From Candidatus Omnitrophota bacterium (GTDB taxonomy: Bacteria; Omnitrophota; Gorgyraeia; Duberdicusellales; 4484-171): 64,000 nt of DNA. A program made the position numbers and the translations under genes. The notes below the pieces were generated by a model, which saw only the letters and a program-made list of their open reading frames with translations, was not told the DNA's origin and searched no databases. The first letter of the stretch is position 1; each line of letters begins with the position of its first letter. The stretch spans positions 9,105-73,104 of the forward strand of contig JBDRAN010000059.1 of the NCBI GenBank assembly GCA_043823745.1, in the 5' to 3' direction. Below are positions 8,916 to 38,913 of the stretch, piece by piece.

Positions 8916-8998
8916 AATTCGCGCAGGTGACTTATGAGCGCTTACGTGCGAACGCTTCATACGTCACGCGCTCATTGAATACCTGGCCATATCGGATG

Positions 8999-9064: not shown

Positions 9065-9073
9065 GAGGATATA

Positions 9074-9980: not shown

Positions 9981-11438
9981 ATGAAGGTTTTATTTGTGCA
10001 ACCAAAAATCGGCGCGTGGGCAACACATGGAACACACTTTGCACCGAATCAGCTGTACGCGCAATGGGGAGCGTATATTCGCGCCAAGGGGTATAGTAAC
10101 CTTGAGGTGTTGGACGCGACGGTTCTCGCTATCGGGCTTGAGCAGATCGGGGAAAAAGTTAAAGAAAAAAATCCCGATGTCGTCGTGCTTGGCGATATGA
10201 TTCATTGTTCTGTCGGTTTTGGCATCATCTGGCATTTTAACCAGGCCGCCGCGCGCGTTAAGCAGGCGCTGCCAAAAGTGAAAGTGGTGATGGGCGGGCT
10301 GTGGTATTCCGCGCTTCCGGTGCAAACGTTAGAGGACAATCCAGCGATTGACTATGTGGTTATGGGAGAGGAAGAATCATTTTTTGATCTCATTGACGCG
10401 CTTGCCAAAGGCAAAAGCACCAAAGATATTGGCGGCGTTACTTCGCGCGTAGACGGCTTGCCCGTAATGGGCCCGCATAGGCCTTTACTGCAGGATTTAG
10501 ATCAGCTGCCGCTTCCGGCGTATGATTTGTTTCCGATGGATAAATATGTGGGGCATACCTTCTGGAAGCCGTTTGTGGAAATGATTACTTCCCGGGGGTG
10601 TCCTTCAGCGTGCACATTCTGCTACGAGTGGGATCAGTATGATCCTCGTTCACCTAATGATTTTTTAACCTGGCGCGCAAAATCTCCGGAGCGTGTTATT
10701 GAGGAGCTCGAGCTCTTGCATAAAATGGGCACGAAAGTCGTTGTTATCCAGGATGATAATTTCAATGTGGATGCTAGCCGCGTTGAGAAGTTTTGTCAGT
10801 TGAAAAAAGCAAAGAATAATCCGATTAAATGGGTGTCGCTCGGCCGCGCCGTTGACTGGGTCAACTGTGAAAAAATATTGCCGCTTATGAAAGAAACCGG
10901 TATGTTTATGGGGGTTTTCGGCATTGAGGTCACCACACCGGAAGAGCTTAAGAAAATAGCCAAAGGTATCACTATCGATCAAATCAAAAAGACCATTGAT
11001 ATTTTGCGTGCGCAAGATATCGCCATCGTCGCGGATATCATGATGGGCTTTGATGAGGACACGGAATATTCGATTAAGCAGCGTTATGAGTTTACCGATG
11101 AAGTTGATCCTGATATTCTGTGGGTCGGGTATGTTACGCCGGCCCCTAATTCTCCTATTTGGCGCCAGAGAGTCAAGCGCGGCGAGATCGATATCAAAAA
11201 GATTGATTTTCTTAAATGGGATTTTCTGCATCCGGTCATGGCAACCCCGCACCTTTCGCTTGAAGATTATGGAAGGCTCGGAGCGTGGTGCATGCGTGAA
11301 TTTTTTTCAAAGCCCGGTAGGATCCAGCGCATTATGACCAGCAACTTCGATCCCTTGGCAAAGCTTTGTTTTGAGGATGTTATGCGCGGGGTAACCAAGT
11401 GGGAAGCCGGCGCGGTGAAGGGAGAGAAGCATATTTAA
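9981..11438 (+). CDS. B12-binding-domain radical SAM protein
   Basis: N-terminal cobalamin-binding-like domain followed by the radical SAM motif SRGCPSACTFCYEW (C-x3-C-x2-C). Confidence 0.8.
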   Translation: MKVLFVQPKIGAWATHGTHFAPNQLYAQWGAYIRAKGYSNLEVLDATVLAIGLEQIGEKVKEKNPDVVVLGDMIHCSVGFGIIWHFNQAAARVKQALPKVKVVMGGLWYSALPVQTLEDNPAIDYVVMGEEESFFDLIDALAKGKSTKDIGGVTSRVDGLPVMGPHRPLLQDLDQLPLPAYDLFPMDKYVGHTFWKPFVEMITSRGCPSACTFCYEWDQYDPRSPNDFLTWRAKSPERVIEELELLHKMGTKVVVIQDDNFNVDASRVEKFCQLKKAKNNPIKWVSLGRAVDWVNCEKILPLMKETGMFMGVFGIEVTTPEELKKIAKGITIDQIKKTIDILRAQDIAIVADIMMGFDEDTEYSIKQRYEFTDEVDPDILWVGYVTPAPNSPIWRQRVKRGEIDIKKIDFLKWDFLHPVMATPHLSLEDYGRLGAWCMREFFSKPGRIQRIMTSNFDPLAKLCFEDVMRGVTKWEAGAVKGEKHI

Positions 11439-20918: not shown

Positions 20919-21011
20919 ACAGTGCGTGCGTGGTGATTATTCTTGTTTACCTGTGCCATCATTGTTATAATTAGTAAGGTCTATGTTACCATTTCGATCA
21001 TCGGAAATCAT

Positions 21012-22496
21012 ATGCTTTTTAGCGAAGAATTAAAACTTCTTGTTCAATCGAAATACCCCGTTATTGCGGTTGAGTCCACCGATGAGGATTATGTTGTCCA
21101 ACAACTGGTGGAAATAGCGCCTCAACTTGAATTGGTATTTTTTCAGTGGTCGCTTACGTCTGGTCTGCAAAGAGAGGGTGGACAGGGAGCATACTACCAG
21201 ACCAAAGATCCGGTTTTTATGTGTAAAACCATTGTTAGTTTTCTTGAAGCAGGAGATTTTAAGGAAAGTTTATTTGTATTGAAGGATTTCAATCGCTATC
21301 TGGAAGACCCGCTTACCTCCAGGATTTTTAAAGACGTAGTCGGTCTCATTAAGGGCACCAAAAATACTATTGTTCTTTTGGCTGCCGAGTACAAACTGCC
21401 AAAAGATATTGAAGCCATATCGGGCCACTTGATCGGCGGATATCCCGCCCAAGAAGAAATTAGAGGCGTGGTGTGGGAAACTATTTCTGAGTTAAAGCGT
21501 ACCGGTCAGGATATGCGCATGACCTTTGTTCCTGGCGAATTTGAGCGTATCTCAAAAATCTTGGAAGGTTTATCGATTCAGCAGATTCGCAATATCATTC
21601 ATCAGTGTGTGGCGGAAGACAGGGAGTTTGATATCAACGATTTACCGGCAGTTGAAAAATACAAAAAGCAGATATTTGATCAAGAAGGATTGCTTGAGTT
21701 CTGCATTACTGAGGATAAAAGGAATATCGCTGGCTTTCATAATTTAAAGCGATGGATTTCTGAGCGCAGCGTTAGTTTTTCCTCCGGCGCGCCTGGGTTG
21801 CCCCAGCCCAAAGGAGTGCTTCTGATGGGAGTGCAGGGGTGCGGCAAGAGTCTTGCTATCAAGGTGCTCGCGCGTGAACTTAATTTACACTTATACCGGC
21901 TTGACTTGGCGCGTTTGTACAGCAAATATATAGGCGAAACAGAGCAAAACCTCCGTAAGGCGCTAGCGATTGTAGAAAAGTTATGTCCATTATGTTTGTG
22001 GATCGATGAGATCGAGAAAGGATTTGCTTCTTCAGATGGGGATATTGACGGAGGAGTATCGCAGCGTATACTGGGCACGTTTCTGACCTGGATGCAGGAA
22101 CGCGGAGCAGGCTGTTTTGTCGCGGCGACCGCCAATAATATTTATCAGTTGCCTCCTGAATTTTTGCGTAAAGGGCGATTTGATGAGATATTTTTCGTTG
22201 ATTTGCCCGATGAAACAATGCGTTTTGAACTTTTCAAAATTCATCTCAAGAAACGTGGTCTTACGGCTTCAGGGTTTGATTGCAAGGTACTCGCCGGTCG
22301 CTCGGTTGATTACAGCGGCGCCGAGATCGAACAGATTATAATTTCAGCGCTCTACCGGGCTTCAAGCGAAAAGACAGTTCTTACCCAGGACCATCTCTTT
22401 GAACAGATTGAGGCAACAAAACCCCTGGCGGTTTTGAAAGCCGAAGAAATTGCGAGTCTGAGGGAATGGGCGCGTCAGCGCACTATTGCCGCCTGA
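21012..22496 (+). CDS. AAA+ ATPase with an N-terminal domain of unknown function
   Basis: Walker A GVQGCGKS, Walker B LWIDEIEK, and a second region of homology. The N-terminal ~250 aa have no recognisable motif. Start chosen at ATG 21012. Confidence 0.7.
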   Translation: MLFSEELKLLVQSKYPVIAVESTDEDYVVQQLVEIAPQLELVFFQWSLTSGLQREGGQGAYYQTKDPVFMCKTIVSFLEAGDFKESLFVLKDFNRYLEDPLTSRIFKDVVGLIKGTKNTIVLLAAEYKLPKDIEAISGHLIGGYPAQEEIRGVVWETISELKRTGQDMRMTFVPGEFERISKILEGLSIQQIRNIIHQCVAEDREFDINDLPAVEKYKKQIFDQEGLLEFCITEDKRNIAGFHNLKRWISERSVSFSSGAPGLPQPKGVLLMGVQGCGKSLAIKVLARELNLHLYRLDLARLYSKYIGETEQNLRKALAIVEKLCPLCLWIDEIEKGFASSDGDIDGGVSQRILGTFLTWMQERGAGCFVAATANNIYQLPPEFLRKGRFDEIFFVDLPDETMRFELFKIHLKKRGLTASGFDCKVLAGRSVDYSGAEIEQIIISALYRASSEKTVLTQDHLFEQIEATKPLAVLKAEEIASLREWARQRTIAA

Positions 22497-23767: not shown

Positions 23768-25063
23768 ATGTGTTACGCAATTCCCGGAAAAATAGTAGAG
23801 ATTAAAGGCAAAATCGGCGTTGTCGACTATTTTGGCGAGCAGAAGAATGTTTTGATGGATTTCGCCAAAGCCAAGGTAGGCGATTATGTCTATGCGCAGG
23901 GCGGCCTTGTGGTTAACACCATTTCAGAGCGCGAAGCTTTAGAAATCCTAGAAGCCTGGAAGGATATGTTTTTTGCGCTTAAAAAAGCAGATGAAAAACT
24001 TTCAGTTATCGAAGATATCCCGGCTTCGCAGAAGCTGCTTGCGATTTTGCAAAAGGTTAATCTGGGCAAGCCGTTCGTCAAGGAAGAACTTCTATCTTTG
24101 TTGCGCACGAGCAATAAAGATGAGTTGCGCTTGTTCTATGAGAATGCCAATAATGTTCGTCAGAAAACACACGGGAATGCCTGTTGTGTGCATGGGATAC
24201 TTGAATTTTCCAATGTGTGTGAACAGAACTGTTTTTATTGCGGGATCAGGAAGGGCAAGCGCCTGAAACACTACCGTATGAGCTCCGGGGAGATCATTGG
24301 CGCGGCGCGTTACGCGGCAGAGGAGCTGGGGTTTAAGGCGCTAGTTTTACAGTCGGGAGAGGACAGCTGGTATACTGCCGAAATACTTGCACCGGTGGTT
24401 GAGGCTATACGCGCAATGGGCGTTCTTGTTTTCTTAAGTATCGGTTCGCGGGAAAAGGAGCTCTATAAAAGCTTATACGAGGCGGGCGCGCGCGCTGCGC
24501 TTTTGCGTTTTGAAACTTCCAATGAAAAGATATTTGAAAGTGTGCGTCCCGGCACGACCTTAAAAGGGCGCCTTGAACTGATCGAGTACCTTAAGAAACT
24601 CGGATATGTGCTTGCGACCGGCTTTATTGTTGGTCTTCCTAATGAGCGTGAGGAAGATGTTGTTAATAATATTCTGCTGACAAAATCTCTAAAACCAGAG
24701 ATGTACTCGTTTGGCCCGTTTATCCCTGCGGCCGGGACCCCGTTAGTCAAGCACGCGTTAGTTGATAAAAATTTGCTTTTAAAGGTAATCGCCATTGCGC
24801 GGCTTGCGGATCAGGATTCTAACATTTTAGTTACAACCGCACTTGAAACGTTAGATAAGCGCGCCAAGCGCGAGGGTATGCTCGCCGGCGCCAATTCTTT
24901 GATGATTAATATTACGCCCCGGCGCTATAAAAAATTATATTGTATTTACGATAATCGTGCGGATAATAATATCGCAATTAAAAAGGGCATTAAGGAAACG
25001 ATCGACTTACTGCATTCCTTAGGAAGGGCACCGACTGATTTAGGTGTCCATATCGCCCGGTAA
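23768..25063 (+). CDS. Fusion of a HypC/HybG/HupF-like domain (N-terminal ~75 aa) with a HydE/BioB-like radical SAM enzyme
   Basis: N-terminal MCYAIPGKIVEI...KVGDYVYAQGGLVVNTISEREA matches the HypC MC(L/I)AIP...KVGDYVLVHVG...EEEA pattern. Radical SAM motif CEQNCFYCGIRKG. The C-terminal GFIVGLPNEREEDVVNNILLTKSLKPEMYSFGPFIPAAGTPL is HydE/BioB-like. Confidence 0.6.
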   Translation: MCYAIPGKIVEIKGKIGVVDYFGEQKNVLMDFAKAKVGDYVYAQGGLVVNTISEREALEILEAWKDMFFALKKADEKLSVIEDIPASQKLLAILQKVNLGKPFVKEELLSLLRTSNKDELRLFYENANNVRQKTHGNACCVHGILEFSNVCEQNCFYCGIRKGKRLKHYRMSSGEIIGAARYAAEELGFKALVLQSGEDSWYTAEILAPVVEAIRAMGVLVFLSIGSREKELYKSLYEAGARAALLRFETSNEKIFESVRPGTTLKGRLELIEYLKKLGYVLATGFIVGLPNEREEDVVNNILLTKSLKPEMYSFGPFIPAAGTPLVKHALVDKNLLLKVIAIARLADQDSNILVTTALETLDKRAKREGMLAGANSLMINITPRRYKKLYCIYDNRADNNIAIKKGIKETIDLLHSLGRAPTDLGVHIAR

Positions 25064-25085
25064 AAGTAGGGCACAAGGGGGCTAT

Positions 25086-25937
25086 ATGAGACGGATAGTA
25101 ACGTTTAAGGAAGCGCCGCTGACGCTGGTAGGGAGAGTCATTAGACAGGATGATGCCGGTCCTGGTTTTAAAGCAGTTTCGAATGACCTGCAAGATATTA
25201 CGCTTGCTTCTTTTGGAAATAAAATTAAAGTTATCACTTCGTTTCCATCCGCAGATACGCCGGTTTGCGATCTTCAGATCAAGGAGTTTAATAAACGCGC
25301 AACCGGATTTTCCGCTGATGTCGTTGTTATCGGCGTTAGCAAGGATCTTCCGTTTGCCCAGGCCCGCTTTTGCCAGCTCAACGGCATTAAAAATGTGACG
25401 ACGCTTTCGGATTACAAATATTCTTCATTCGGCATTAATTACGGTTTGCTTGTTAAAGAGTTGAACCTCCTTGCCCGCGCGGCGCTTATTCTTGATGGGG
25501 CTAACGTGGTGCGTTATATCCAGGTGGTGAGCGAAATAACCCAGCCGCCTGATTACGAGGCAGTGTTGGTTGCCCTGGAGACTATCGTAAAGAACCCTCA
25601 GGCTGGCACTGTCACAGAATCCGGCCATTGTAAGCCCTGCGAAGGGGGAGTACTTGCGCTTTCAAAGAATATGATCGAACGATTTCTCGCCGGTAATCCG
25701 GGCTGGGAGCTCGTTGATGATACGAAGCTCGTTCGCGAATTCAAATTCAAGGATTTCGCGGAAGCAAAATATTTTCTCGATCTTGTTGCTATCATTGCCG
25801 AAGAGCAAGGACATCATCCAACATTGACGCTTATGTACAATAAGCTTAGAGTTATTCTGACCACTCATATGGCTGGTGGCGTAACGGATAATGATTTTGT
25901 AATGGCAAGAATTATTGATGAGATAAGAGGCGAATGA
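25086..25937 (+). CDS. Fusion: thiol peroxidase (Tpx, atypical 2-Cys peroxiredoxin) domain plus pterin-4a-carbinolamine dehydratase (PCD/DCoH) domain
   Basis: Tpx motif SFPSADTPVCDLQ with its resolving Cys region. C-terminal EEQGHHPTLTLMYNKLRVILTTH is the PCD signature. Start chosen at ATG 25086 after an AAGGGGG RBS. Confidence 0.6.
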   Translation: MRRIVTFKEAPLTLVGRVIRQDDAGPGFKAVSNDLQDITLASFGNKIKVITSFPSADTPVCDLQIKEFNKRATGFSADVVVIGVSKDLPFAQARFCQLNGIKNVTTLSDYKYSSFGINYGLLVKELNLLARAALILDGANVVRYIQVVSEITQPPDYEAVLVALETIVKNPQAGTVTESGHCKPCEGGVLALSKNMIERFLAGNPGWELVDDTKLVREFKFKDFAEAKYFLDLVAIIAEEQGHHPTLTLMYNKLRVILTTHMAGGVTDNDFVMARIIDEIRGE

Positions 25938-26251
25938 AACCCCAAACAAAGAAAACAATATTGCGCGAGTTTCTCATATTCTTGATATTTGTTCCCTTAC
26001 CTATCAGGTTGATATATCTTTACGATCTTTGGCAATTTATTACCGACAGATATACGATATTGTTACCCACCAGCTCTAGTTTGTTTGCTTTTTTCGGGAT
26101 GCTTTATCCGATTTATTTTATTATTCGTAGTATAGTAAAATTTATACAAGGTATAAGACATACAGAAAAGGCTCTGGCAGCAAGACAAATTGTTTATATT
26201 GTGCTCTTTGCGTTCATTGCGTGGCCAACTACTAGTGTAGTGTCTTCATAA
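25934..26251 (+). CDS. Hypothetical small membrane protein (3 predicted TM helices), in an AT-rich stretch
   Basis: ORF only, hydrophobic; no motif. Confidence 0.25.
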   Translation: MKPQTKKTILREFLIFLIFVPLPIRLIYLYDLWQFITDRYTILLPTSSSLFAFFGMLYPIYFIIRSIVKFIQGIRHTEKALAARQIVYIVLFAFIAWPTTSVVSS

Positions 26252-26318
26252 ATCAATATATCTCCTTGCATCGCAATCCAATTACTGTAAGGTAGACGAG
26301 GATTGTCGCGGGATTGTA

Positions 26319-26561
26319 ATGGGTTGTTGCGGTTACGGCCCTGTTATTAATAAAAAGGATAGTTTTCTCCTTGGCGGTTTATTTGCAAATCTCTATGAAA
26401 TATATTGTAGACATCCGAATGAGTGCCAGGTGGTGGATTGTATAGATACCTGGCCTCCTGTTTGCCGTAATAATAAATGTACGGAAACAAGTTATGAAGA
26501 CGGATATTTTAGAAACAAGTTGGGAGAGAAGCAAAAGGAGAGTTTGGAGAATAGGAGGTAA
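26319..26561 (+). CDS. Hypothetical small Cys-rich protein (80 aa, 9 Cys)
   Basis: ORF only; begins MGCCGYG; no recognisable family. Confidence 0.2.
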   Translation: MGCCGYGPVINKKDSFLLGGLFANLYEIYCRHPNECQVVDCIDTWPPVCRNNKCTETSYEDGYFRNKLGEKQKESLENRR

Positions 26562-26567
26562 ATAACG

Positions 26568-27080
26568 ATGAAGGTGGCGATTCTTGTAGAAGACCAATAT
26601 CAGGTGCTTGAAGTCTGGTATCCGTATCTGCGCTTACGCGAAGAGGGTTTTAAAACCGTGTTGTTGGGTACGAAACGGGAATTTTATAAGAGCAAAGAGG
26701 GTTATCCGGCAGAGGAAGAAGCGGTGATTCAAGAAGCGCGGCCGAATGATTATGATGGGGTGATCATCCCCGGAGGATATGCGCCGGATATCTTGCGTCG
26801 TTACAAAGAGGTCAATCGATTCGTTAAGGGGATGTTTGAAAAAGGAAAGCTTGTTGCCTCCATTTGCCATGGCGGCTGGGTGCTTGTTTCTGCGGGGGTC
26901 TTGCGAGGTAAAACCGCGACCGCCTTTTACGCGATACAGGATGATTTAGTAAATGCCGGCGCCACATTCGTCGATAAAGAGGTCGTGGTTGACGGAAATC
27001 TCATTACGTCCCGTAATCCGTATGATCTACCTGCGTTTTCCCGGGAAATTATCCGCTTTTTATCAAAAAAGAAAAATTAA
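26568..27080 (+). CDS. DJ-1/PfpI-family protein (class I glutamine amidotransferase-like)
   Basis: Nucleophile elbow AS-ICHGGWVL; size 170 aa. Confidence 0.8.
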   Translation: MKVAILVEDQYQVLEVWYPYLRLREEGFKTVLLGTKREFYKSKEGYPAEEEAVIQEARPNDYDGVIIPGGYAPDILRRYKEVNRFVKGMFEKGKLVASICHGGWVLVSAGVLRGKTATAFYAIQDDLVNAGATFVDKEVVVDGNLITSRNPYDLPAFSREIIRFLSKKKN

Positions 27081-27091
27081 GGGCCTAACGT

Positions 27092-27988
27092 ATGAGCCAC
27101 CCTCATTTAGAGCACCGCCACCAGCATCACCGCGCCGACAAACTAACTCGTCTTCGATTGTCTATTATCTTGACCGCCGCCGGTATGATTGTTGAGTTTG
27201 CCGGAGGGTTCCTGTCCAACAGCTTAGCGCTTATTTCGGACGCCGGGCATATGCTCACTCATCTTTTTGCTCTGGGGATGAGTTACTTTGCGGTCGTGCT
27301 CGCGCTTAAGCCTGCCAGCAAACATCACACCTATGGGTTTTACCGCGCTGAGGTTTTAACCGCTTTTGTGAATGGCATCGTGCTTGTCGGTATTGCGGGC
27401 TATATCGCGTATGAAGCTCTGGGCCGGCTTGTGCACCCGGAGGAAATTAAGATCCAGGAGATGTTTCTGGTGGCTCTCTTTGGTCTGGTGATTAACGGCG
27501 TCAGTATCGCTCTCTTGACCAAAGTGAGCGAACATGATTTAAACATAAAAAGCGCAATCTTGCATGAGTTAGGGGATATGATCTCAAGCATAGCGGTCGT
27601 TGCCGGCGCGATCATTATTTTCTATACCAAAAATTATCTAGTTGATTCGCTCCTGTCGCTGGTTATCGCAGGGCTCATTGTCGTTTGGGCAGTGCGTCTT
27701 CTTCTTGACTCCGCGCACATATTGCTTGAATCAACTCCCAAGCACCTTGATATCGATGAAATTGTTGCCGCAGTCAAAAAAGAAATCCCGGATATTCATG
27801 GAATGCACCATGTTCATGTCTGGACTATCGCCACTTCAATGTACGCGCTCACTGCGCATCTTATTATCGAAGATTGCAGTATCAGCACCTCAAGTGAGCT
27901 CCTGCGCCGCGTTAATGAATTCTTGAAAGAACGTTTTCACATCGAACATACGAATATCCAATGTGAGTGCGTGGCAACACAGATTTGA
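27092..27988 (+). CDS. Cation diffusion facilitator (CDF) family metal efflux transporter
   Basis: SDAGHMLTH motif in TM2, HELGD in TM5, and a C-terminal cytoplasmic domain. Confidence 0.85.
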   Translation: MSHPHLEHRHQHHRADKLTRLRLSIILTAAGMIVEFAGGFLSNSLALISDAGHMLTHLFALGMSYFAVVLALKPASKHHTYGFYRAEVLTAFVNGIVLVGIAGYIAYEALGRLVHPEEIKIQEMFLVALFGLVINGVSIALLTKVSEHDLNIKSAILHELGDMISSIAVVAGAIIIFYTKNYLVDSLLSLVIAGLIVVWAVRLLLDSAHILLESTPKHLDIDEIVAAVKKEIPDIHGMHHVHVWTIATSMYALTAHLIIEDCSISTSSELLRRVNEFLKERFHIEHTNIQCECVATQI

Positions 27989-28081
27989 ACGGATTTCGTT
28001 TATCCATGAGGCCGCGGCGCAATGGGAAAATTCCTTGACGAACGGACACCATAGCGGTATTAAAGGTTTAGGGGGAGCACC

Positions 28082-29041
28082 ATGTTTGTGCACGCACGAG
28101 AAAAAATTTTAAGCGCCAAACGGATCTTAATCGCCTGCCATATTCATCCTGACGGAGATTGTATCGGTTCGCTTCTGGCGCTTGGCCTGGCGCTTCGAAC
28201 GCTGGGGAAAGAGGTGTGTATGCTCTCCAGCGACGGCCTGCCGCGACGGTACGCTTCCCTGCCGGGCGCATACCGCATCGTAAAAACTACCCGCGCGCGT
28301 TTCGACGTCGCGATCGCGGTTGATTGCGGGAGCAAGGAGTTGCTTGGTAGCGTATTCAAGCATTTTGAGCAAACTCCGTGCACGATCGAGATCGATCATC
28401 ATGAGTTCAGGGTGCCCTTCGCCGGCATACGCATTGTGGATACCGATGCCGCCGCGGTAGGAGAGATTATTTTTCGATTCCTTAAAGATTCAGGCATCAG
28501 TATCACCAAAGAAATTGCTCAAAATATTTTAACTTCGATCATCGTTGAGACCAATTCGTTTCGCCTACCCAATGTACGAGCCCTTACGTTTAACGTGTGC
28601 GGCGACTTAATGCGGCTTGGTGTCGATTTTTACTCGTTGGTCGATGCGGTGTTCTGGTCGCGCAGCAAGGAGGAGGCGATTCTTTCAGGGTTGTGTCTCG
28701 CGCGTTGTCAATTTATATACCGGGGGCAAATTGCCTGGTCGATCGTGCGCGCGGCAGACATGAAAAAAATAAAAGGAAAAGAAGAAGATGTTGACGCGGT
28801 GGCTGATCAGATGCGCTCAATAACAAAAGTTAAAATCGTAATTGTTTTCCGGGAACAAGAGGGCAGCCTTCTGCGTGTGAGTTTGCGCTCAAAAGAAAAA
28901 ATCAATATAGCGCAATTAGCCAAGCGTTACGGCGGCGGCGGGCATTTTGATACCGCGGGTTGCCTTATTCCCAACAGCAGGTTTGCCAGAAATAAATTCC
29001 TGCGCGATGCGCAGGCGATGCTTAAGAAGCAGACGGTATAA
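28082..29041 (+). CDS. DHH-family phosphoesterase (NrnA-like nanoRNase / pAp phosphatase)
   Basis: DHH motifs CHIHPDGDCIGS, AVDCG and IDHH; DHHA1 GGGH near the C-terminus. Confidence 0.75.
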   Translation: MFVHAREKILSAKRILIACHIHPDGDCIGSLLALGLALRTLGKEVCMLSSDGLPRRYASLPGAYRIVKTTRARFDVAIAVDCGSKELLGSVFKHFEQTPCTIEIDHHEFRVPFAGIRIVDTDAAAVGEIIFRFLKDSGISITKEIAQNILTSIIVETNSFRLPNVRALTFNVCGDLMRLGVDFYSLVDAVFWSRSKEEAILSGLCLARCQFIYRGQIAWSIVRAADMKKIKGKEEDVDAVADQMRSITKVKIVIVFREQEGSLLRVSLRSKEKINIAQLAKRYGGGGHFDTAGCLIPNSRFARNKFLRDAQAMLKKQTV

Positions 29042-29042
29042 C

Positions 29043-29552
29043 ATGTCAATTACTACTAAACGCGGCGATAACGGATATACTGCGTTATGCGCAGGGCCTC
29101 GCGTGCGCAAGGACGATCTTCGTATAGAAGCGCTGGGGTTTGTCGATGAGCTTTCTTCGTTCCTTGGCCTTGCTAAAAGCGCTCTTCCCGCGCGCTCCGC
29201 GAAATTTCTGATTAGTTCTGTGCAGAAAGATTTGTTTATGGTGGGAGCAGAGGTTGCGGCAGGCCCGAACGCAAAACGTGTCGGGCGCATCAGCCCGCGT
29301 GACGTCGCGCGTCTCGAGAAACAGATTGCCGCTTTAGAGAAGCGAAACACCCGGCACGGGTTTATCGCGCCCGGTGAAAATCTTATTTCCGCTACTTTTG
29401 ACGTGGCGCGGGCGATATCGCGCAGACTTGAGCGTCGCATTGTTACCTTGAAGCGAAAAAGGCTTTTTAACAATACTGACGCGTCGGTCTATTGCAATCG
29501 TCTTTCCGATCTTTTATTTTTGCTTGCCCGCAGTCACGAGAAGAAACCGTAG
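29043..29552 (+). CDS. PduO-type ATP:cob(I)alamin adenosyltransferase
   Basis: N-terminal TKRGDNGYT signature; ~170 aa. The annotated ORF from 28947 is an over-extension overlapping the previous gene. Confidence 0.8.
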   Translation: MSITTKRGDNGYTALCAGPRVRKDDLRIEALGFVDELSSFLGLAKSALPARSAKFLISSVQKDLFMVGAEVAAGPNAKRVGRISPRDVARLEKQIAALEKRNTRHGFIAPGENLISATFDVARAISRRLERRIVTLKRKRLFNNTDASVYCNRLSDLLFLLARSHEKKP

Positions 29553-29641
29553 AGGATAAAACAAGGAAACGAGAGTAGCTGGTGGAATCCCAGGGTATTC
29601 TCCTGGTTGCTTTTTTAAGAAAAAAAAGTGGGGGTGTTCAT

Positions 29642-29974
29642 ATGCGTGTCCTATTGTTTTCTATTTTGTTCTTTTTGGCGAGTTTGCCGGTATTTGCGCA
29701 TTCGCCTGAAGCGGTTACCATATCAGCCGAAGGAGCTATGGTAGCGGTCATCGTTGAGCATCAGGTAGCCGATCCCCGCGGTCATTATATTAAGCGCATT
29801 GAGATTTCTTTAAATGGAAGGCATATCATTGTCCAGGAATTCTCGTTACAGGGCTCGAATACCCAGCAGAAGGCAGTCTATGAGATCCCTGGACTAAAGA
29901 AAGGGGATATCCTCGCGGTAGACGCTGATTGTAATAAGGGAGGTGATCGTTCCGCGAAGATAGAGGTACCGTAA
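29642..29974 (+). CDS. Secreted desulfoferrodoxin-Fe-binding-domain-like (superoxide-reductase-like) protein with an atypical Cys motif
   Basis: Signal peptide [27 protein letters not shown] and HY motifs align with SOR centre II ligands, and the Cys in ADCNKGG aligns too. The His of the canonical C-N-x-H is replaced by Gly. Confidence 0.45.
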
Positions 29975-30107
29975 AAGCGCTTGCAAGCATAGTGTTGGTG
30001 GGCGTGTAATTTTATGGTACAATTGGATTTTAAGAGGGAAGGGGACGCCAAAAACAGGGTATTGGCGCTCAAATACATTAACGATGTTACTCTTTGGAGG
30101 TGCAGCT

Positions 30108-30275
30108 ATGACTAAATATCGTTGTCTTGTCTGTAGTTATGTGTATGATCCCGAGCTAGGCGACCCGGACGGGGGGATTGAACCGGGAACAGCCTTTGAG
30201 AGCATATCTAATACCTGGCTTTGCCCGGTATGCGGGGCCGATAAGACTCAATTTGAGTCTGTTATTGAAGGGTAA
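30108..30275 (+). CDS. Rubredoxin
   Basis: CLVCSYVYD and CPVCGA C-x2-C pairs; 55 aa; RBS GGAGG. Confidence 0.85.
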
Positions 30276-30350
30276 ACATTCCTTGGTGGCTCGCGGGATT
30301 TCGATCCTGTACGCGCGTAGAGTTCTCTGCGTAAAGAAAAGGAGGATATA

Positions 30351-30713
30351 ATGTCTGAGGTTGTTGGAGCATTGGACCCCAAGCAAGAACGAACATATGC
30401 GATGTTATGCCATCTTTCGGCATTGGCAGGCTATCTTATACCGCTTGGTAATATCATTGGTCCTTTGGTTATGTGGTTGATAAAGAAAGATCAGTCTGCG
30501 CTGGTTGACGCTGAAGGAAAAAAAGCGCTTAATTTCCAGATCTCTATTCTTATCTATTTACTGGTCTCCGGAATTCTCTGTCTGGTTTTAATCGGATTCG
30601 CGCTTGTAGCGGTGATTGGAATATTTGAGCTGGTCATGGTTATCGTCGCGGCAGTTAAAACCAGTAACGGTGAAGAATTCAAATATCCTTTAAGTATTAC
30701 ATTTTTGAAATAA
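30351..30713 (+). CDS. DUF4870-like small membrane protein
   Basis: Conserved N-terminal E-R-x-x-A-x-L-C-H-L-S pattern and two TM helices. Confidence 0.5.
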   Translation: MSEVVGALDPKQERTYAMLCHLSALAGYLIPLGNIIGPLVMWLIKKDQSALVDAEGKKALNFQISILIYLLVSGILCLVLIGFALVAVIGIFELVMVIVAAVKTSNGEEFKYPLSITFLK

Positions 30714-30762
30714 CGGGGCCGCTGCGATTGGGGTCCTGCCGCGCGTGCGCACGAGAAACAAT

Positions 30763-31953
30763 ATGACCGAAATACGGAAAAATATCCATTGGGTTGGAGC
30801 GATTGATTGGGATTTACGTAATTTTCACGGCTATTCTACGCCATTTGGCTCAACCTATAACGCCTATCTTATTCTTGATGAACAACCAACTTTGGTTGAT
30901 ACGGTAAAACATTATTGTTACGATGAAATGGTTTCCCGTATTAAACAGATCATCGATCCCGCCAAAATCAGGTATATTATTTCTAACCACACTGAGATGG
31001 ATCATTCGGGCTCTATCGGAAAGCTTCTCGCGATATGCCCTGCCGCCGAAGTTGTGTGTTCCCTGAAAGGCCACGAAGGGCTCACGAAGCACTTTCAGAA
31101 TGCCGGTGCGGGGAATTGGAAATTTAAGGTGGTTGGTAGCGGTGATACGCTTATGATCGGAAGTCGCGCCCTCGAGTTTTTCTTGATGCCGATGGTGCAC
31201 TGGCCTGATTCTATGGCTACCTATAGTCGTAGCGATAAGGTGTTGCTTCCCAATGACGCGTTTGGCCAGCATTATGCTTCGAGCCAGCGCTTTGTTGACG
31301 AAGTGGGGTTGGAATTTGCGCTTACGGAAGCTCAAAAATATTATGCCAATATTGTGTTGCCGTATGGCGGCCAGGTTGTTCGCGCCCTTGAGGCGCTCGG
31401 GAAACTCCCCGTTGAAGTGATTGCTCCGTCGCACGGTCTCATCTGGCGGCGCGAGCAGGATATTTCACAAATACTTACGCGTTACCGGTCTTGGGCTCAT
31501 TATGAAGCAGGCTCACAGGCGGTGATCGTGTACGATACGATGTGGCATTCAACAGAGGTGCTGGCGCGCGATCTCTATGATGCGCTTGGGAATGAAGGGA
31601 TTCCGGCACGCTTATGTAATCTGCAAGTTACCCATATTTCCGATATCATGGCTCAGGTATTAGCGTCAGGCGCCCTGCTGGTAGGAAGCCCGATTTTAAA
31701 TGGCAGGATTCTCCCGAGCATGGCAGCGTTTCTTACCTATCTGCGCGGTCTTAAGCCTAAGAATAGAGTGGGTTTTACCTTTGGTTCTTATGGCTGGGCC
31801 CCGGCTGGGTTTCGTGAAATGGAAGATGCGTTAAAGGACTCCGGTATAACGCTGGTTAAGGAAGGCGTATACGTTAATTATGTGCCTGATCAGGCAGCTC
31901 GTGCTCAAATGGCCGATGTTGCCCGAGAGCTTAAAGCGGCGCTTACACGGTAA
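30763..31953 (+). CDS. Flavodiiron protein (FprA / rubredoxin:oxygen oxidoreductase family; metallo-beta-lactamase-like plus flavodoxin domains)
   Basis: Di-iron motif H-x-E-x-D-H (NHTEMDHSGS); C-terminal flavodoxin-like domain. Confidence 0.85.
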   Translation: MTEIRKNIHWVGAIDWDLRNFHGYSTPFGSTYNAYLILDEQPTLVDTVKHYCYDEMVSRIKQIIDPAKIRYIISNHTEMDHSGSIGKLLAICPAAEVVCSLKGHEGLTKHFQNAGAGNWKFKVVGSGDTLMIGSRALEFFLMPMVHWPDSMATYSRSDKVLLPNDAFGQHYASSQRFVDEVGLEFALTEAQKYYANIVLPYGGQVVRALEALGKLPVEVIAPSHGLIWRREQDISQILTRYRSWAHYEAGSQAVIVYDTMWHSTEVLARDLYDALGNEGIPARLCNLQVTHISDIMAQVLASGALLVGSPILNGRILPSMAAFLTYLRGLKPKNRVGFTFGSYGWAPAGFREMEDALKDSGITLVKEGVYVNYVPDQAARAQMADVARELKAALTR

Positions 31954-32000
31954 ATAAAAATTTTCGGTGTGCCTGATCAGATTACAAAAAAAGGAGTGTT

Positions 32001-32501
32001 ATGGCAAATATTTTTAACCCTGAGGAAATTCTACGTATCGCGATTACGGTGGAAACAAACGGAAAAGCGCTTTATGGTACGTTGGAAGCAAACGCGCGCG
32101 AAGAAAAAATAAAAGAAACATGGCGTTATCTGAAAGAGCAGGAAGGGGTGCATCAAAAAATTTTTCAGGAGATGCTTGATAAGGGGGGTGATTTCATCGT
32201 CGCGGAATTCAATCCCGGAGAATACGACGCCTACATGCGGGCGATTGCTTCCGAGTATGTTTTTACGCAGAACATGGTAAGTAAAAAAGTGAAAGAGGGC
32301 TTTGTGTCTGACATGGAAGCGGTTGATTTCGGAATATACGTCGAGAAAGAGTCGATTCTTACTTACTCGGCGTTACGTGCATATATCCTGCCGGTAAAAC
32401 AGGCAGTGATTGATAAAGTGATTGACGAGGAGCGCAAGCATTTGGTGGATCTTACGAATATAAAACGCTCGCTACAAAAAAAGGATAACGATGGATATTA
32501 A
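32001..32501 (+). CDS. Ferritin-like / rubrerythrin-like domain protein
   Basis: Paired E-x-x-H-like helices (EQEGVHQK, DEERKHL); 166 aa; sits between the FDP and glutaredoxin genes. Confidence 0.45.
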   Translation: MANIFNPEEILRIAITVETNGKALYGTLEANAREEKIKETWRYLKEQEGVHQKIFQEMLDKGGDFIVAEFNPGEYDAYMRAIASEYVFTQNMVSKKVKEGFVSDMEAVDFGIYVEKESILTYSALRAYILPVKQAVIDKVIDEERKHLVDLTNIKRSLQKKDNDGY

Positions 32502-32721
32502 AATCTATTCAACACCAACGTGTCCCTATTGCAAGATGGTGAAGAATTATCTTTCATCAAAAGGAATACCTTATACGGATTACGATGTTTCAGTAAACCA
32601 GGTGGCGCTTGAGGAGATGACCAAGCAGACCGGGCAAATGGGGGTTCCGGTTGTCGTAATCGGCGATCAGGTTATTATCGGTTTTGACCAGGCGCGCATT
32701 GACGCTCTCCTGAAGCTCTAG
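32491..32721 (+). CDS. Glutaredoxin-like protein (NrdH/Grx thioredoxin fold)
   Basis: CPYC active site in IYSTPTCPYCKMVK; 76 aa; GVPVV motif. Confidence 0.75.
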   Translation: MDIKIYSTPTCPYCKMVKNYLSSKGIPYTDYDVSVNQVALEEMTKQTGQMGVPVVVIGDQVIIGFDQARIDALLKL

Positions 32722-32753
32722 TCCAACAGGACACCCTGTTGGGTAGTCCACAG
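32719..32753. terminator. Palindromic element TAGTCCAACAGGacaCCCTGTTGGGTAG directly after the glutaredoxin stop codon
   Basis: Perfect 9-bp stem CCAACAGGG/CCCTGTTGG with a 3-nt loop. Related copies at 16341-16378 and 32824-32849. Confidence 0.5.
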
Positions 32754-32823
32754 CCCCGTTACCCTCAATAACGATATTAAGGTTCGGGGCGTCCCATGCC
32801 TTAATGTTTTCTATTTAGGAAAT

Positions 32824-32849
32824 GGGACAGGGCACCCTGTTGGGTAGCC
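32824..32849. repeat. Third copy of the CCCTGTTGGGTAGCC-type palindromic element (ACAGGGcaCCCTGT)
   Basis: GGGACAGGGCACCCTGTTGGGTAGCC; shares the CCCTGTTGGGTAGYC core. Confidence 0.4.
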
Positions 32850-32875
32850 TAGCGAGGCATTCCGGGAGGCAGTTT

Positions 32876-33091
32876 ATGCCTACATACACCTACCTGTGCT
32901 CGATCTGCAACAGAAGTTTTGAGCTGCTGGTCAGTATGAGTCACGATATCCGCGAGCTCCCATGCCCTCAGTGCGGGGCAAAGAAATTAGAAAAAGTATT
33001 TTCCGGTTTTCGCATCGGCCGCTCCAATATATCCGAGGCTTCCTCAAAATGCGGTTCCTGCTCGGGCGGTGATTGTTCGAGTTGCTCGTAG
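32876..33091 (+). CDS. FmdB-family zinc-ribbon protein
   Basis: Begins MPTYTYLCSICNRSFE, with a second pair CPQCGA and a C-terminal Cys-rich tail (CGSCSGGDCSSCS). Confidence 0.6.
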   Translation: MPTYTYLCSICNRSFELLVSMSHDIRELPCPQCGAKKLEKVFSGFRIGRSNISEASSKCGSCSGGDCSSCS

Positions 33092-33205
33092 TAACGCGAA
33101 TGACCGCTAATTGAAAGCGCGAATTTCCGCTAATATATTAGGAACTATTAGCGTTTTTAAATTCGCGGAGATTAGCGTTTCCTATTAGCGTAAATTAGCG
33201 TTTAT
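33092..33205. repeat. Second large ATTAGCG/CGCGAAT word cluster, upstream of trxB
   Basis: AACGCGAATGACCGCTAATTGAAAGCGCGAATTTCCGCTAATATATTAGGAACTATTAGCGTTTTTAAATTCGCGGAGATTAGCGTTTCCTATTAGCGTAAATTAGCG. Confidence 0.5.
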
Positions 33206-34123
33206 ATGAAGATATATGATTTACTTATCCTCGGTGCCGGGCCCGCGGGTATTACCGCGGCAGTGTACGCCTCAAGAAAGAAGCTCGATTTTCTGGTTGT
33301 GACATTAGATATCGGCGGCCAGGCTGCCTGGAGCGGGGATATCGAGAATTATACCGGGTATCAGTTTATTACCGGACCGGAGCTGGCGCTTAAATTCCAG
33401 GAACATATGAACTCGTTCGGCATTGCCGTGCGTATGCCCCAACGGGTGCGCGAGGTCGCCAAAGAGGGCGCGTTAGTCGCGACCACGACCGATAAAGAGC
33501 AATATAGCTCCAAAGCCGTTATTATCGCTACCGGCAAGCGGCCGCGGCCCTTAAACGTACCGGGAGAAAAAGAGTTCAAAAACAAAGGTGTTACGTATTG
33601 CGCGACCTGTGATGGGCCGCTTTTTAAAAATAAGCCGGTCGCGATCATCGGGGGGGGTAACTCCGCGCTTGATGCTGCCGTGCAGATGCTCAAAATTTGC
33701 CCGACAGTATACCTTATTAACATCGGGCCGAAGTTGACCGGCGATCCGGTCATGGTCGATACGGTCACGAAAGCACCCAATGCGATTATTTTGAACGATA
33801 CCAAAATCACTAAGATCTTTGGTGATGCGTTTGTGAAGGGCATTGAAGTTGTGCATCAGGGCGCAACTCAGACCTTCGATGTCGCCGGCGTTTTTGTCGA
33901 GATCGGCCTTATTCCTAACTATGATTTTTCAACTCTGGTAAACTGCAACGAGGCAGGCGAAGTAATCGTTGATTGTCATAACCAGACAAATATTGAAGGT
34001 ATTTTTGCCGCCGGAGACGTCACCAATGTTCCGGAGAAGCAAATTGTTATCGCCTGCGGCGAGGGTTCCAAGGCCTGTCTTTCGGCAGGTAAGTATTTAG
34101 CGACGCATATATTTAGCGTTTAG
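33206..34123 (+). CDS. trxB: Thioredoxin-disulfide reductase-like FAD/NAD(P) oxidoreductase
   Basis: GAGPAG FAD motif, redox-active CATCDG, and GGGNSA NAD(P) motif; 305 aa. Confidence 0.75.
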   Translation: MKIYDLLILGAGPAGITAAVYASRKKLDFLVVTLDIGGQAAWSGDIENYTGYQFITGPELALKFQEHMNSFGIAVRMPQRVREVAKEGALVATTTDKEQYSSKAVIIATGKRPRPLNVPGEKEFKNKGVTYCATCDGPLFKNKPVAIIGGGNSALDAAVQMLKICPTVYLINIGPKLTGDPVMVDTVTKAPNAIILNDTKITKIFGDAFVKGIEVVHQGATQTFDVAGVFVEIGLIPNYDFSTLVNCNEAGEVIVDCHNQTNIEGIFAAGDVTNVPEKQIVIACGEGSKACLSAGKYLATHIFSV

Positions 34124-34233
34124 TTCCCTTCGGGAAGGCTACGCACCGTATAGCGAATAGCGTTTAGAGAGGAAGAGAATACCAATTATAAAACTCTGTG
34201 CTCTGCGATGACCGCTCTACGCTATTTATTATA

Positions 34234-34710
34234 ATGAAGTTATCCAAAGACATTATTCATTTTTTTGAGAAACAGGGGTTTGTGATTGTCTCGACGCTCG
34301 ATGAATCCTGCGGCAGCATCCATTGTTCGGCGAAGGGCATCGGGAGCATCACACCGGCCGGCAAGATCTATCTTATTGATCTTTACCGGTCAAAGACTTT
34401 TAGGAACCTGCAGGCTAACTCTACGGTAAGCCTGACTGCCGTTGATGAGCATCATTTTATCGGCTATACATTAAAAGGAAAAGCGCGCATCATTGAGCGC
34501 GAGAAGATAAAAAATTATATTATCAAGCAATGGGAGGAACGCGTTACCGCGCGTATATCCCGCCGGCTCATTAAGAACGTGCGCGGCGACAAGCGTTTTG
34601 CGCGCCACCCGGAAGCCCGCTTCCCTGCGCCTCAATATCTGATTGTTGTCGAGGTGACCGCGGTCGTTGATCTTGCGCCCGGCCAGCGTAACCAGCTTCC
34701 TAAACAGTAA
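34234..34710 (+). CDS. Pyridoxamine 5'-phosphate oxidase-like FMN-binding split-barrel protein
   Basis: ~158 aa with the PNPOx-like N-terminal pattern. Start chosen at the internal Met (MKLSKDIIHFF). Confidence 0.45.
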   Translation: MKLSKDIIHFFEKQGFVIVSTLDESCGSIHCSAKGIGSITPAGKIYLIDLYRSKTFRNLQANSTVSLTAVDEHHFIGYTLKGKARIIEREKIKNYIIKQWEERVTARISRRLIKNVRGDKRFARHPEARFPAPQYLIVVEVTAVVDLAPGQRNQLPKQ

Positions 34711-38049: not shown

Positions 38050-38412
38050 ATGTTGATAGCAAAGACAAAGAAGGAAAAGCGTAAAAGTCAAAGGCTCTCT
38101 ATTTGTTTTCCGGTAAAGTACAAACTCAAGCAACATACCCCCCTTAGAAACGCAATTGTCTGCCGTGACATTAGCGGCCATGGCGTAAGCATTCTTGCGC
38201 ACGAAGTATTAAAGACAAATCATAAACTTAATGTAATGCTCTACCCGAAGGGGAGTTGTAAGCCCATAGATGCGTTGTGTAAAGTAGTCTGGTGCAGGCA
38301 AAGCTATAAGGGTGCATTTGAGGCAGGCCTTGAATTCTTAAAAATTAAACAGGAACAACAATTCATAGATTTTCTTTGCAGTAATCTTATTGAATCGTCG
38401 CTTAAAAAGTGA
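38050..38412 (+). CDS. PilZ-domain protein (c-di-GMP-binding)
   Basis: RxxxR-like KRKSQRL and D-x-S-x-x-G (CRDISGHGVSI) motifs. Confidence 0.6.
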   Translation: MLIAKTKKEKRKSQRLSICFPVKYKLKQHTPLRNAIVCRDISGHGVSILAHEVLKTNHKLNVMLYPKGSCKPIDALCKVVWCRQSYKGAFEAGLEFLKIKQEQQFIDFLCSNLIESSLKK

Positions 38413-38511
38413 AGCTCCGTCGCCTTATGACGGTGGTTAGGGCTTACATCCATGGAACGAAACCCTGAGCCATGCGTGGTTTATGGGTAAATACAACGGA
38501 GGGATGCGTGT

Positions 38512-38913
38512 ATGCGTAAGAAGTCTTACAAAGAAAAGAGGAAAGCGCAACGTCTCAACCTTTCTTTACCCTTCGAATATCACTCTGCACGAGGCAAGAA
38601 GGTCTCTTCGAAAAGAATATGTACGAGAGATATAAGTGGTTCAGGAATAGGGTTTCGTCTCGCTCACCCCGTAGCCGTGAGGGCGCGTTTAGGGATATTA
38701 TTATATTTTCCTACTGATAAGCGGCCTATATCGTCAGTGGCCGAGGTTGTACGGTGCACCAAACGTGTGATTAAGGGAAAACCTTTGTATGATGTAGGGG
38801 TAAAGCATCTTAAGATTGCCGCCAAAGACAGAGAGAGGTTTGTTTTTTCTTTCTGTGAAACGATGATAAATCATTTCGTGTTGCCCGTGGGGGTAGCAGT
38901 TGATGAAAAATGA
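38512..38913 (+). CDS. PilZ-domain protein (second paralogue)
   Basis: KRKAQRLNL and TRDISGSGIGF motifs. Confidence 0.6.
   Translation: MRKKSYKEKRKAQRLNLSLPFEYHSARGKKVSSKRICTRDISGSGIGFRLAHPVAVRARLGILLYFPTDKRPISSVAEVVRCTKRVIKGKPLYDVGVKHLKIAAKDRERFVFSFCETMINHFVLPVGVAVDEK

Follow-up and report, generated by a model that had tools for sequence, protein, structure and literature searches.

Fusions of HypC to a HydE-type radical SAM enzyme and their possible role with HydG in [NiFe] hydrogenase maturation

A 64,000 nucleotide segment from a Candidatus Omnitrophota bacterium (contig JBDRAN010000059.1 in GenBank assembly GCA_043823745.1), referred to here as the window, was found to carry a gene that joins a HypC-like domain to a HydE-type radical S-adenosylmethionine (SAM) enzyme. 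Related fusions occur in many phyla, where they are frequently accompanied by HydG and by [NiFe] hydrogenase genes. Genomic inference from gene neighbourhoods and residue conservation suggests, with moderate confidence, that the fusion and HydG probably form a hybrid maturation module for [NiFe] hydrogenases of group 3b and some of group 4. The initial annotation of the window had offered two readings of the gene, one as an organometallic-cofactor route not yet described and the other as a hybrid maturation logic, and comparative genomics favours the second. The hybrid logic is in line with the pairing or fusion with HydG and with [NiFe] operons that hold HypA, HypB and HycI, whereas the accompanying view of HydE as the maker of the Fe(CO)2(CN) synthon had to be given up, as it is HydG that builds a cysteine-bound synthon, which HydE then processes (PMC10114646).

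The fusion protein, its family and its active site

The gene occupies positions 23768–25063 on the forward strand and, from the open reading frame (ORF) list and its translation, is complete, with an ATG start codon and 431 aa followed by a stop. The predicted protein is 100% identical to a protein (P0001) from a metagenome-assembled genome of a ‘Candidatus Omnitrophica bacterium’. As all of the positions that are invariant in 120 family members are kept in the window copy, the gene is intact and looks functional.

The HypC-like domain comprises residues 1–78 (positions 23768–24001, forward strand). The Pfam model PF01455 (HupF_HypC) matched residues 1–64 over its full length (1–65 of 65) with 59.5 bits against a cutoff of 28.5, the NCBIfam model TIGR00074 (hypC_hupF) scored 52.9 bits against a cutoff of 48, and T. 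kodakarensis HypC (2z1c) matched residues 1–70 in a PDB search (E 3.6e-13). The domain starts with MCYAIP, which places Met-Cys2 within the MC(x)3P motif, and M1, C2 and P6 are each conserved in at least 90% of the 120 members. An AlphaFold2 model of the whole protein, built on 120 homologues, had a predicted local distance difference test (pLDDT) value of 93 and a predicted template modelling score of 0.92. In it the HypC domain forms a five-strand β-barrel (strands 7–52) and a long C-terminal helix (54–78), with pLDDT 81–94 in this block; the fold was judged from this secondary structure together with the sequence match. In an alignment with E. coli HypC, Cys2 and Pro6 are retained and His51 (E. 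coli numbering), which is presumably a residue that defines the HypC family, is replaced by Gln44, invariant in 120 of 120 members.

The HydE-type part is a radical SAM (β/α)8 barrel spanning residues 93–427 (positions 24044–25048, forward strand), in which Pfam located Radical_SAM at residues 146–300 and BATS at 318–397. The best NCBIfam model for the barrel was that of HydE (TIGR03956, residues 95–401) with 239.9 bits, below the equivalog cutoff of 254.6. The competing models all scored below their own cutoffs, PylB with 125.7 bits (cutoff 348), BioB with 92.5 (225), ThiH with 62.9 (380) and HmdB with 62.7 (321), each more than 110 bits behind HydE. T. maritima HydE (TmHydE) matched residues 93–422 in the PDB search (E 2.5e-64) with about 36–40% identity over 330 residues, and a Foldseek comparison of the AlphaFold2 model gave a TM score of 0.95 and a root mean square deviation of 1.7 Å for TmHydE (3CIX), with 0.86 for PylB and 0.85–0.87 for BioB. 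Both halves of the initial domain assignment were thus upheld, the N-terminus lying above the Pfam and NCBIfam cutoffs for HypC, and the barrel having HydE, and not BioB, PylB or ThiH, as its best family model and best structural match.

Among 5.8 billion proteins searched, more than 120 clusters of 58–72% identity were recovered, all with PF01455 plus PF04055, and a survey that took one genome per GTDB species placed full-length fusions in at least 246 species genomes. Bacterial carriers include Omnitrophota, Planctomycetota, Patescibacteria (candidate phyla radiation, CPR), Coxiellaceae-like Gammaproteobacteria and Margulisiibacteriota, and among the other carriers are Elusimicrobiota, Nitrospirae, Chlamydiae, Thermodesulfobacteriota, Brevinematales and DPANN archaea. 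When 1.84 billion cluster representatives were searched exhaustively, the scores of full-length fusions ran from 535 to about 254 bits; unfused HydE-type proteins (about 350 aa, 35–41% identity) scored about 237 bits and below and aligned only from residue 93 or thereabouts. The HypC domain was present in about 22 of the top 150 cluster representatives at 50% identity. In a neighbour-joining tree of the barrel with 131 tips, the 16 full-length fused tips fell into one clade of 20, at least two of the other four being N-terminal fragments. On this tree the fused proteins appear to be essentially one clade, a distinct and widespread subfamily of HydE-type enzymes. Four other HydE-type proteins (P0153, P0160, P0212 and P0246) have another kind of N-terminal domain, about 100 aa long and with the conserved stretch ‘PxPxxYG(x)xC’; by eye it resembles DUF3343, a putative sulfur/selenium carrier, which suggests that carrier domains fused to HydE-like barrels may be a recurring theme.

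For the active site, residue roles established for TmHydE (PMC10114646, PMC11826987) were mapped through a HMMER alignment, and conservation was read over 120 fusions. The radical SAM cluster motif C151-x3-C155-x2-C158 (24218–24241; this and the following positions are on the forward strand) corresponds to C63/C67/C70 of TmHydE and is invariant (120/120). Equally invariant are Met312 (24701–24703), the counterpart of M224 that binds the Fe(CO)2(CN) product (PMC10114646), and Met379 (24902–24904), that of M291, a conserved ‘backflow valve’ (PMC10114646, PMC11826987). The pocket for the HydG complex-B is kept, with residues invariant or conservatively replaced: E146 (E58 in TmHydE), Q195 (Q107), R247 (R159), T356/T357 (T268/T269) and R/K397 (K309). 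Of these TmHydE residues, E58 and K309 form the active-site salt bridge, Q107 and R159 line the pocket and T269 contacts CN ligands (PMC10114646, PMC11826987). The auxiliary-cluster cysteines of HydE are absent from the fusion.

The lower site, S3, has been rebuilt. In TmHydE it contains one Thr and two Arg, contacts CN ligands and is needed for [FeFe] maturation, which is impaired by mutation of one S3 residue; dimerisation has been proposed to occur there (PMC10114646, PMC11826987). In the fusion H52 and R54 are replaced by Cys140-Val-His142 (24185–24193), invariant in 120 of 120 members and in 16 of 16 fused representatives. T134 is replaced by Phe222 (24431–24433), Phe in 120/120, and R155 by Ala243 (24494–24496), Ala or Gly in 119/120. 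Among the 16 fused representatives the Cys/His pair was found in all, the T134 position held Phe in 14, Ile in one and Tyr in one, and the R155 position held Gly or Ala in all. The 115 unfused HydE-type representatives kept R54 in 101 cases, T134 in 94 and R155 in 92, and the Cys/His signature was seen in about five, all within or beside the fusion clade. In these alignments the S3 replacement tracks the fusion clade. Read from its residues, the active site says that the substrate would be that of HydE and the fate of the product a different one.

HydG, [NiFe] hydrogenase genes and the proposed route

The surroundings of the fusion genes were compared by calling ORFs and clustering the neighbours at 82 non-redundant genome loci and, as a second sample, at 80 metagenome loci. 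The combined set contained 160 loci (about 147 distinct) and 1.9 Mb of sequence, ±10 kb around each fusion; single loci are cited by their L numbers. The commonest neighbour at the 82 genome loci was a radical SAM gene of about 460 codons directly downstream, whose product is a true HydG, scoring 562 bits with TIGR03955 (cutoff 312). HydG adjoins the fusion at 41/82 genome loci, 40/80 metagenome loci and 82/160 loci of the combined set, and in 40 of the 41 genome cases it overlaps the stop codon of the fusion or begins within about 430 nt. All 42 full-length HydG partners keep CX3CX2C and the C-terminal auxiliary-cluster motif CX2CX22C.

In Nitrospirae, HypC, HydE and HydG are joined in a single polypeptide of 881–943 aa, 906–943 aa for the ORFs at the genome loci (L070 10001–12721; L071 10001–12832; proteins P0122 and P0132), and two such triple fusions were present among the cluster representatives. 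The Nitrospirae triple-fusion gene stands directly after hydB/G/D/A, HycI and a gene for a cyclic nucleotide monophosphate-binding protein. HypC is the N-terminal domain in all double and triple fusions, which fits the need of HypC for a free N-terminal cysteine.

A [NiFe] large subunit is encoded within 10 kb at 53/160 loci (27/82 in the genome and 27/80 in the metagenome sample), on the same strand at 47 and both on the same strand and within 3.5 kb at 36. HydG and a large subunit occur together at 24/160 loci (15 of the 80 metagenome loci), a maturation protease at 52/160, HypA at 14/160 and HypB at 8/160. The large subunit is accompanied by beta/gamma subunits, a small subunit, HycI, a DsbD_2-family membrane protein, HypA and HypB. 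The hydrogenase is group-3b-like, its best models being the alpha, beta and gamma subunits of sulfhydrogenase; a few loci have a group-4 membrane-bound hydrogenase instead. The large subunits carry the canonical motifs RxCGxCxxxH and DPCxxCxxH and a 7-residue C-terminal tail.

The fusion is repeatedly the final gene of group-3b or group-4 [NiFe] operons. An example from Gammaproteobacteria and their relatives reads HypA-HypB-hydB-hydG-hydD-hydA-HycI-DsbD_2-fusion, and L089 from Margulisiibacteriota has HypA-fusion-HydG-hydBGDA-HycI. The island in L175 comprises a group-4 hydrogenase, HypA, HypB, DsbD_2, a group-3b hydrogenase, HycI, the fusion and two rubrerythrins. In L003 (9277–9996) and at 19 other loci, the gene placed between HycI and the fusion encodes the DsbD_2-family protein (about 240 aa; 28.7 bits with PF13386, cutoff 24.9), which may be a transporter of nickel or another metal. 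Beside DPANN [NiFe] genes (L038 7145–7531 and five other DPANN loci) a 128-aa protein without a Pfam match, c15, is encoded; given a weak BLASTP match to HycI (E 0.03), with Asp, Asp and His at the aligned positions, it may tentatively be regarded as a divergent maturation endopeptidase.

HypD, HypE and HypF were found at none of the 160 loci (1.9 Mb, neighbourhoods only) in phmmer searches with E. coli seeds, nor did the E. coli HypC seed recover a free-standing HypC there. Motif scans of the same loci returned neither the HypD sequence GPGCPVC nor the HypE terminus PRIC; the three H-cluster motifs of HydA and the HydF motif CxHx(n)HCxxC were missing as well. HypA, HypB, HycI and large subunits were readily detected by the same searches that missed HypD, HypE and HypF. 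The neighbourhoods therefore hold the nickel-insertion and proteolysis steps, and the sole candidates in them for supplying the iron ligands are the fusion and HydG. A 422-aa DPANN neighbour (c30) was considered as HydF and set aside: by eye its sequence resembled a DUF21-CBS transporter, and no HydF motif turned up in the scan.

These searches bear directly on the reading of the fusion as an ordinary [FeFe] maturase, a HydE that works with HydG and in which the HypC domain, an added carrier, may take the place of HydF and bring the [2Fe] precursor to HydA. That HydE is the best family and structural match, that HydG is the commonest neighbour and that several NCBI records name members HydE would all agree with it, as would the finding that most archaea with [FeFe] hydrogenases have no full HydEFG set, for which an alternative pathway has been proposed (PMC11216029). 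Yet HydA and HydF motifs are absent from all 160 neighbourhoods, as against 53 with a [NiFe] large subunit, and the Thr and both Arg of S3 are replaced throughout the fusion clade. The window protein, moreover, falls short of the HydE equivalog cutoff, and HypC is a chaperone specific to [NiFe] enzymes. An [FeFe] maturase is accordingly considered highly improbable.

A role in [NiFe] maturation could take two forms. In the first, the fusion and HydG would supply CO, or CO plus CN, to a conventional HypCDEF set encoded elsewhere, as an anaerobic, tyrosine-based counterpart of HypX; the HypC domain would pass the iron unit to HypD or compete with free HypC. The origin of CO in anaerobic [NiFe] maturation is regarded as unresolved and more than one source is expected (PMC12134894), which leaves room for such a supplement. 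The HypC domain also keeps Cys2 and Pro6, both of which are used in the HypC–HypD complex, Hyp genes need not be linked to structural genes, and three of five hydrogenase-centred loci, described below, have neither set of genes nearby. Against it, HypD, HypE and HypF are missing even from islands that hold two hydrogenases, HypA, HypB, DsbD_2, a protease and the fusion; HydG also makes cyanide, so that HypE and HypF would be redundant; and His51 of HypC has been lost. Many carriers are CPR and DPANN organisms with very small genomes, in which a redundant second pathway seems unlikely. A purely supplementary role is therefore rated unlikely.

In the second form the module of fusion and HydG would replace HypC, HypD, HypE and HypF and not merely supplement them, which is considered possible although somewhat short of probable. 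The most explicit version, advanced a little more tentatively again, is a complete route to the [NiFe] iron centre without HypC/D/E/F, in which HydG gives CO and CN− from tyrosine and the fusion delivers a mononuclear Fe-CO/CN unit to the apo large subunit. HypC, HypD, HypE and HypF might then have given way to two proteins (in Nitrospirae to one) in CPR, DPANN, Omnitrophota, Margulisiibacteriota, Nitrospirae and some Gammaproteobacteria.

In the proposed hybrid module, whichever of these forms it takes, HydG would cleave tyrosine and build [Fe(Cys)(CO)2(CN)], chemistry that is established for HydG and presumed here. The barrel would bind the HydG complex in its upper pocket, where the 5′-deoxyadenosyl radical would free Fe(CO)x(CN)y from the cysteine, a step suggested by the conservation of E146, Q195, R247, T356/T357, M379, M312 and R/K397. 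More speculatively, the rebuilt S3 site (Cys140, His142, Phe222, Ala/Gly243) might hold the mononuclear iron unit and hand it on to the free N-terminal Cys2 of the HypC domain; canonical HydE, in contrast, parks its product at the Arg/Thr/Arg S3 site, the proposed place of dimerisation to the [2Fe] precursor. The HypC domain would then insert the iron unit into the apo large subunit, HypA and HypB would add nickel, and a HycI-type protease would trim the C-terminal tail, steps for which operon content provides the grounds. For each complex-B, 2 CO and 2 CN− come from two turnovers of HydG (PMC10114646), so the atoms for Fe(CN)2(CO) would be available and the stoichiometry is feasible.

Several observations weigh against a hybrid [NiFe] module. 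In Coxiellaceae-like Gammaproteobacteria the fusion lies in a hydrogenase operon and HydG was found within 10 kb in 0 of 15 cases. A HydG homology search gave no match named gammaproteobacterial among its top 120, the list being filled by conserved canonical [FeFe]-type HydGs; if the gammaproteobacterial genomes are truly without HydG, the HydG step of the proposal fails for them. The HydG product has 2 CO and 1 CN and the [NiFe] site 1 CO and 2 CN, so that an exchange of CO for CN must be assumed, and the replacement of HypC His51 by Gln points the same way. About 30% of loci, the window among them, have neither HydG nor a hydrogenase nearby, and in some Omnitrophota the fusion–HydG pair is found inside a thiazole-biosynthesis/NifSU cluster. 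Hyp genes are, in addition, often unlinked from group-3b structural genes. In a reciprocal check on five relatives of the L003 large subunit located on long contigs, the fusion ended the operon in only two (L171 and L175). In the other three (L172–L174), which have HypA-HypB-hydBGDA-HycI, both the fusion and HypCDEF are missing from the surrounding 10 kb, which indicates that iron-unit genes can be unlinked, like the fusion in the window. A published set of neighbourhoods (PMC12727194) was set aside as a baseline for Hyp linkage, having been seeded on maturation genes as well as on structural genes.

The surroundings of the gene in the window

Pfam scans took in 57 of the 58 genes called in the window, all except a very large ORF of 1674 aa (55925–60949, forward strand), and detected no hydrogenase, Hyp or Hyd family beyond the fusion ORF and no Hmd or Hcg genes near it. 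In phmmer searches with E. coli HypA–F, HycI and HycE against the six-frame ORFs of the 64 kb, the fusion ORF was the sole match. The absence of hydrogenase genes, claimed initially for the neighbourhood of the gene, thus held for the window copy but did not extend to the family, as HydG or a hydrogenase is found near about two thirds of the loci. Surroundings free of hydrogenase genes, seen at about a third of the loci, are therefore no family trait and no argument for a role outside hydrogenases. The HydG and hydrogenase partners of the window fusion are presumed to be encoded outside the 64 kb.

The window has a G+C content of 45%. An AT-rich spacer of 154 nt lies between the fusion gene and a divergent rhomboid gene upstream. 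At the other end, the longest reading frame of the following gene overlaps the fusion stop codon by 20 nt; a scan for promoters and terminators around the fusion gene gave counts no different from those in shuffled sequence. Directly downstream (25044–25937, forward strand) is a gene for a peroxiredoxin (Redoxin/AhpC-TSA, residues 37–175) fused to a pterin-4a-carbinolamine dehydratase domain (206–294), here Prx-PCD, and the same Prx-PCD fusion follows the HypC-HydE gene in the related Omnitrophota loci L007 and L008. The window and L008, whose fusion is 70% identical, share a syntenic block of at least 13 kb in the order AAA ATPase, fusion, Prx-PCD, DJ-1/PfpI, CDF transporter, DHH phosphoesterase, DUF4870, flavodiiron protein, rubrerythrin, thioredoxin reductase and PNPOx-like protein. 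Its redox/oxidative-stress part (25044–34710, forward strand) has 48–73% protein identity to L008 and further holds two small ORFs after Prx-PCD and a zinc-ribbon protein after rubrerythrin; the DHH gene is of the DHH/DHHA1 type.

A setting of this kind raises the possibility that the fusion and HydG make or carry an iron or sulfur species for some other cofactor or enzyme, in thiazole and Fe-S metabolism or, in the window, in the redox/oxidative-stress block, the hydrogenase links being secondary. The window and L008, in which the fusion heads the block from Prx-PCD to thioredoxin reductase with no hydrogenase, would be explained in this way, as would the roughly 30% of loci with neither partner nearby. 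So would two Omnitrophota loci (L088 5004–14034; L090 6284–15329), with no hydrogenase within 10 kb, in which the fusion–HydG pair sits between the ThiI-like and ThiF genes of a ThiE-ThiS-ThiG-ThiH-ThiI-like...ThiF-NifS-NifU-CsoR-like cluster. The thiamine-cluster setting is, however, confined to a few loci of Omnitrophota and Elusimicrobiota, and the cluster has its own ThiH. NifS/NifU-type proteins could equally be iron and sulfur donors to HydG (PMC12501116). No other neighbour recurs across phyla as do the hydrogenase subunits, HycI, HypA/B and HydG, and the families of the two joined domains are known from hydrogenase maturation and from nothing else. A role outside hydrogenases is for these reasons held to be quite unlikely, and [NiFe] maturation is retained as the preferred reading. 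The ThiI-like neighbour of L088 and L090 recurs in L019, L023 and L061.

Two neighbours of the window gene were considered as links and rejected. The upstream AAA ATPase (20943–22496) belonged to a neighbour cluster (c6, 11 loci) that proved to be a single-linkage artefact of AAA/TPR domains, its orthologue being found only in the close relative L008 (70% identity). The rhomboid has a counterpart in L173 that diverges from a HypA-HypB-hyd operon, but the two share 38% identity over 153 residues and the resemblance was treated as coincidence. Rubrerythrin-family proteins (about 160 aa) are encoded directly after the fusion or HycI at many hydrogenase-linked loci (L028 6190–6663; L175 13107–14118; L172 11816–12298), and in the window one is found at 32001–32501, 7 kb downstream of the fusion; near the fusion such a protein could serve in oxygen protection or as an iron-handling partner.

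Two more distant regions of the window also stand out. The genes at 38050–53601, on both strands, encode a FeeM-like N-acyl amino acid synthase, three B12-binding radical SAM enzymes, a ThiF-like protein, a beta-eliminating lyase, an MMPL transporter, a DUF1302 protein, a LolA-like protein and an acyltransferase, which looks like a locus for lipid or natural-product biosynthesis and export. Those at 1777–11438, on the forward strand, encode two tandem beta-ketoacyl synthases, a TPR protein, a putative cyclase, a polyketide cyclase/dehydrase-family (SRPBCC) protein, an MFS transporter, a short-chain dehydrogenase and a B12-binding radical SAM enzyme, and are possibly a type-II polyketide or unusual fatty-acid locus.

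Relation to known maturation systems and implications

The fusion shares with T. maritima HydE (PDB 3CIX and 7O1O) the fold, CX3CX2C, the complex-B pocket, the equivalents of M224 and M291 and, frequently, a HydG neighbour. It differs in its N-terminal HypC domain, in the rebuilt S3 site (H52 to Cys, R54 to His, T134 to Phe, R155 to Ala/Gly), in having no auxiliary-cluster cysteines and in a score just below the TIGR03956 equivalog cutoff, and at the loci compared it is never beside HydF or HydA and is often inside [NiFe] operons. With HypC, HybG and HupF it has in common the two HMM matches above cutoff, Met-Cys-x-x-x-Pro, the β-barrel with C-terminal helix and proximity to [NiFe] large subunits, HypA/B and HycI. 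Free HypC proteins are about 80–90 aa, whereas this domain is tied covalently to a radical SAM enzyme, has an invariant Gln in place of His51 and has no HypD in its neighbourhoods. Like the HydG–HydE–HydF pathway to the [2Fe] subcluster, the module consists of a genuine HydG and a HydE-type enzyme, usually translationally coupled and sometimes fused, but no HydF scaffold or HydA target is encoded in the neighbourhoods; the HypC domain would act as carrier, and a [NiFe] large subunit would apparently be the target.

Two further systems are comparable in function. As with HypX, the module would be an accessory route, separate from the core chemistry of HypCDEF, by which the [NiFe] iron receives diatomic ligands (PMC12134894). 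The folds are unrelated, and so is the chemistry, as HypX decarbonylates formyl-CoA derived from N10-formyl-tetrahydrofolate and the fusion route would cleave tyrosine by radical SAM chemistry; HypX also acts alongside HypCDEF and under oxygen, whereas the fusion carriers are anaerobes. HmdB/HcgA, in the synthesis of the FeGP cofactor of [Fe]-hydrogenase, offers a parallel in which a radical SAM enzyme of the HydE/BioB class has been recruited to hydrogenase cofactor synthesis. The fusion is nevertheless a weak match to HmdB (TIGR03957, 62.7 bits against 320.9), which has CX5CX2C (PMC9431491) in place of CX3CX2C.

In the full-text literature, subscription-only papers aside, no description of a HypC-HydE fusion or of a role for HydG or HydE in [NiFe] maturation was found. 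A 2025 review of the [NiFe] cofactor considers six Hyp proteins necessary for making NiFe(CN)2CO anaerobically and sees in the source of CO under anaerobic conditions the most pressing question still open (PMC12134894); its text contains neither the word ‘radical’ nor the word ‘fusion’. A 2024 survey of archaeal [FeFe] hydrogenases and HydEFG (PMC11216029) does not mention the fusion, and a paper on Margulisbacteria hydrogenases does not discuss maturation genes. The novelty is the recombination of two known maturation systems, in a fusion family that was found described in no paper.

The analysis corrects the annotation of hundreds of fusion proteins, whose database labels now vary between HydE, biotin synthase, HypC or HypC-family chaperone and ‘radical SAM protein’. 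If the proposed route is true, many lineages would have a defined anaerobic source of CO (and CN), namely tyrosine via radical SAM chemistry, and the [FeFe] and [NiFe] maturation systems, treated as unrelated, would have been recombined in nature. It would likewise provide a two-gene maturation cassette for heterologous [NiFe] hydrogenase production, and would explain how group-3b hydrogenases are matured in genome-reduced CPR and DPANN organisms.

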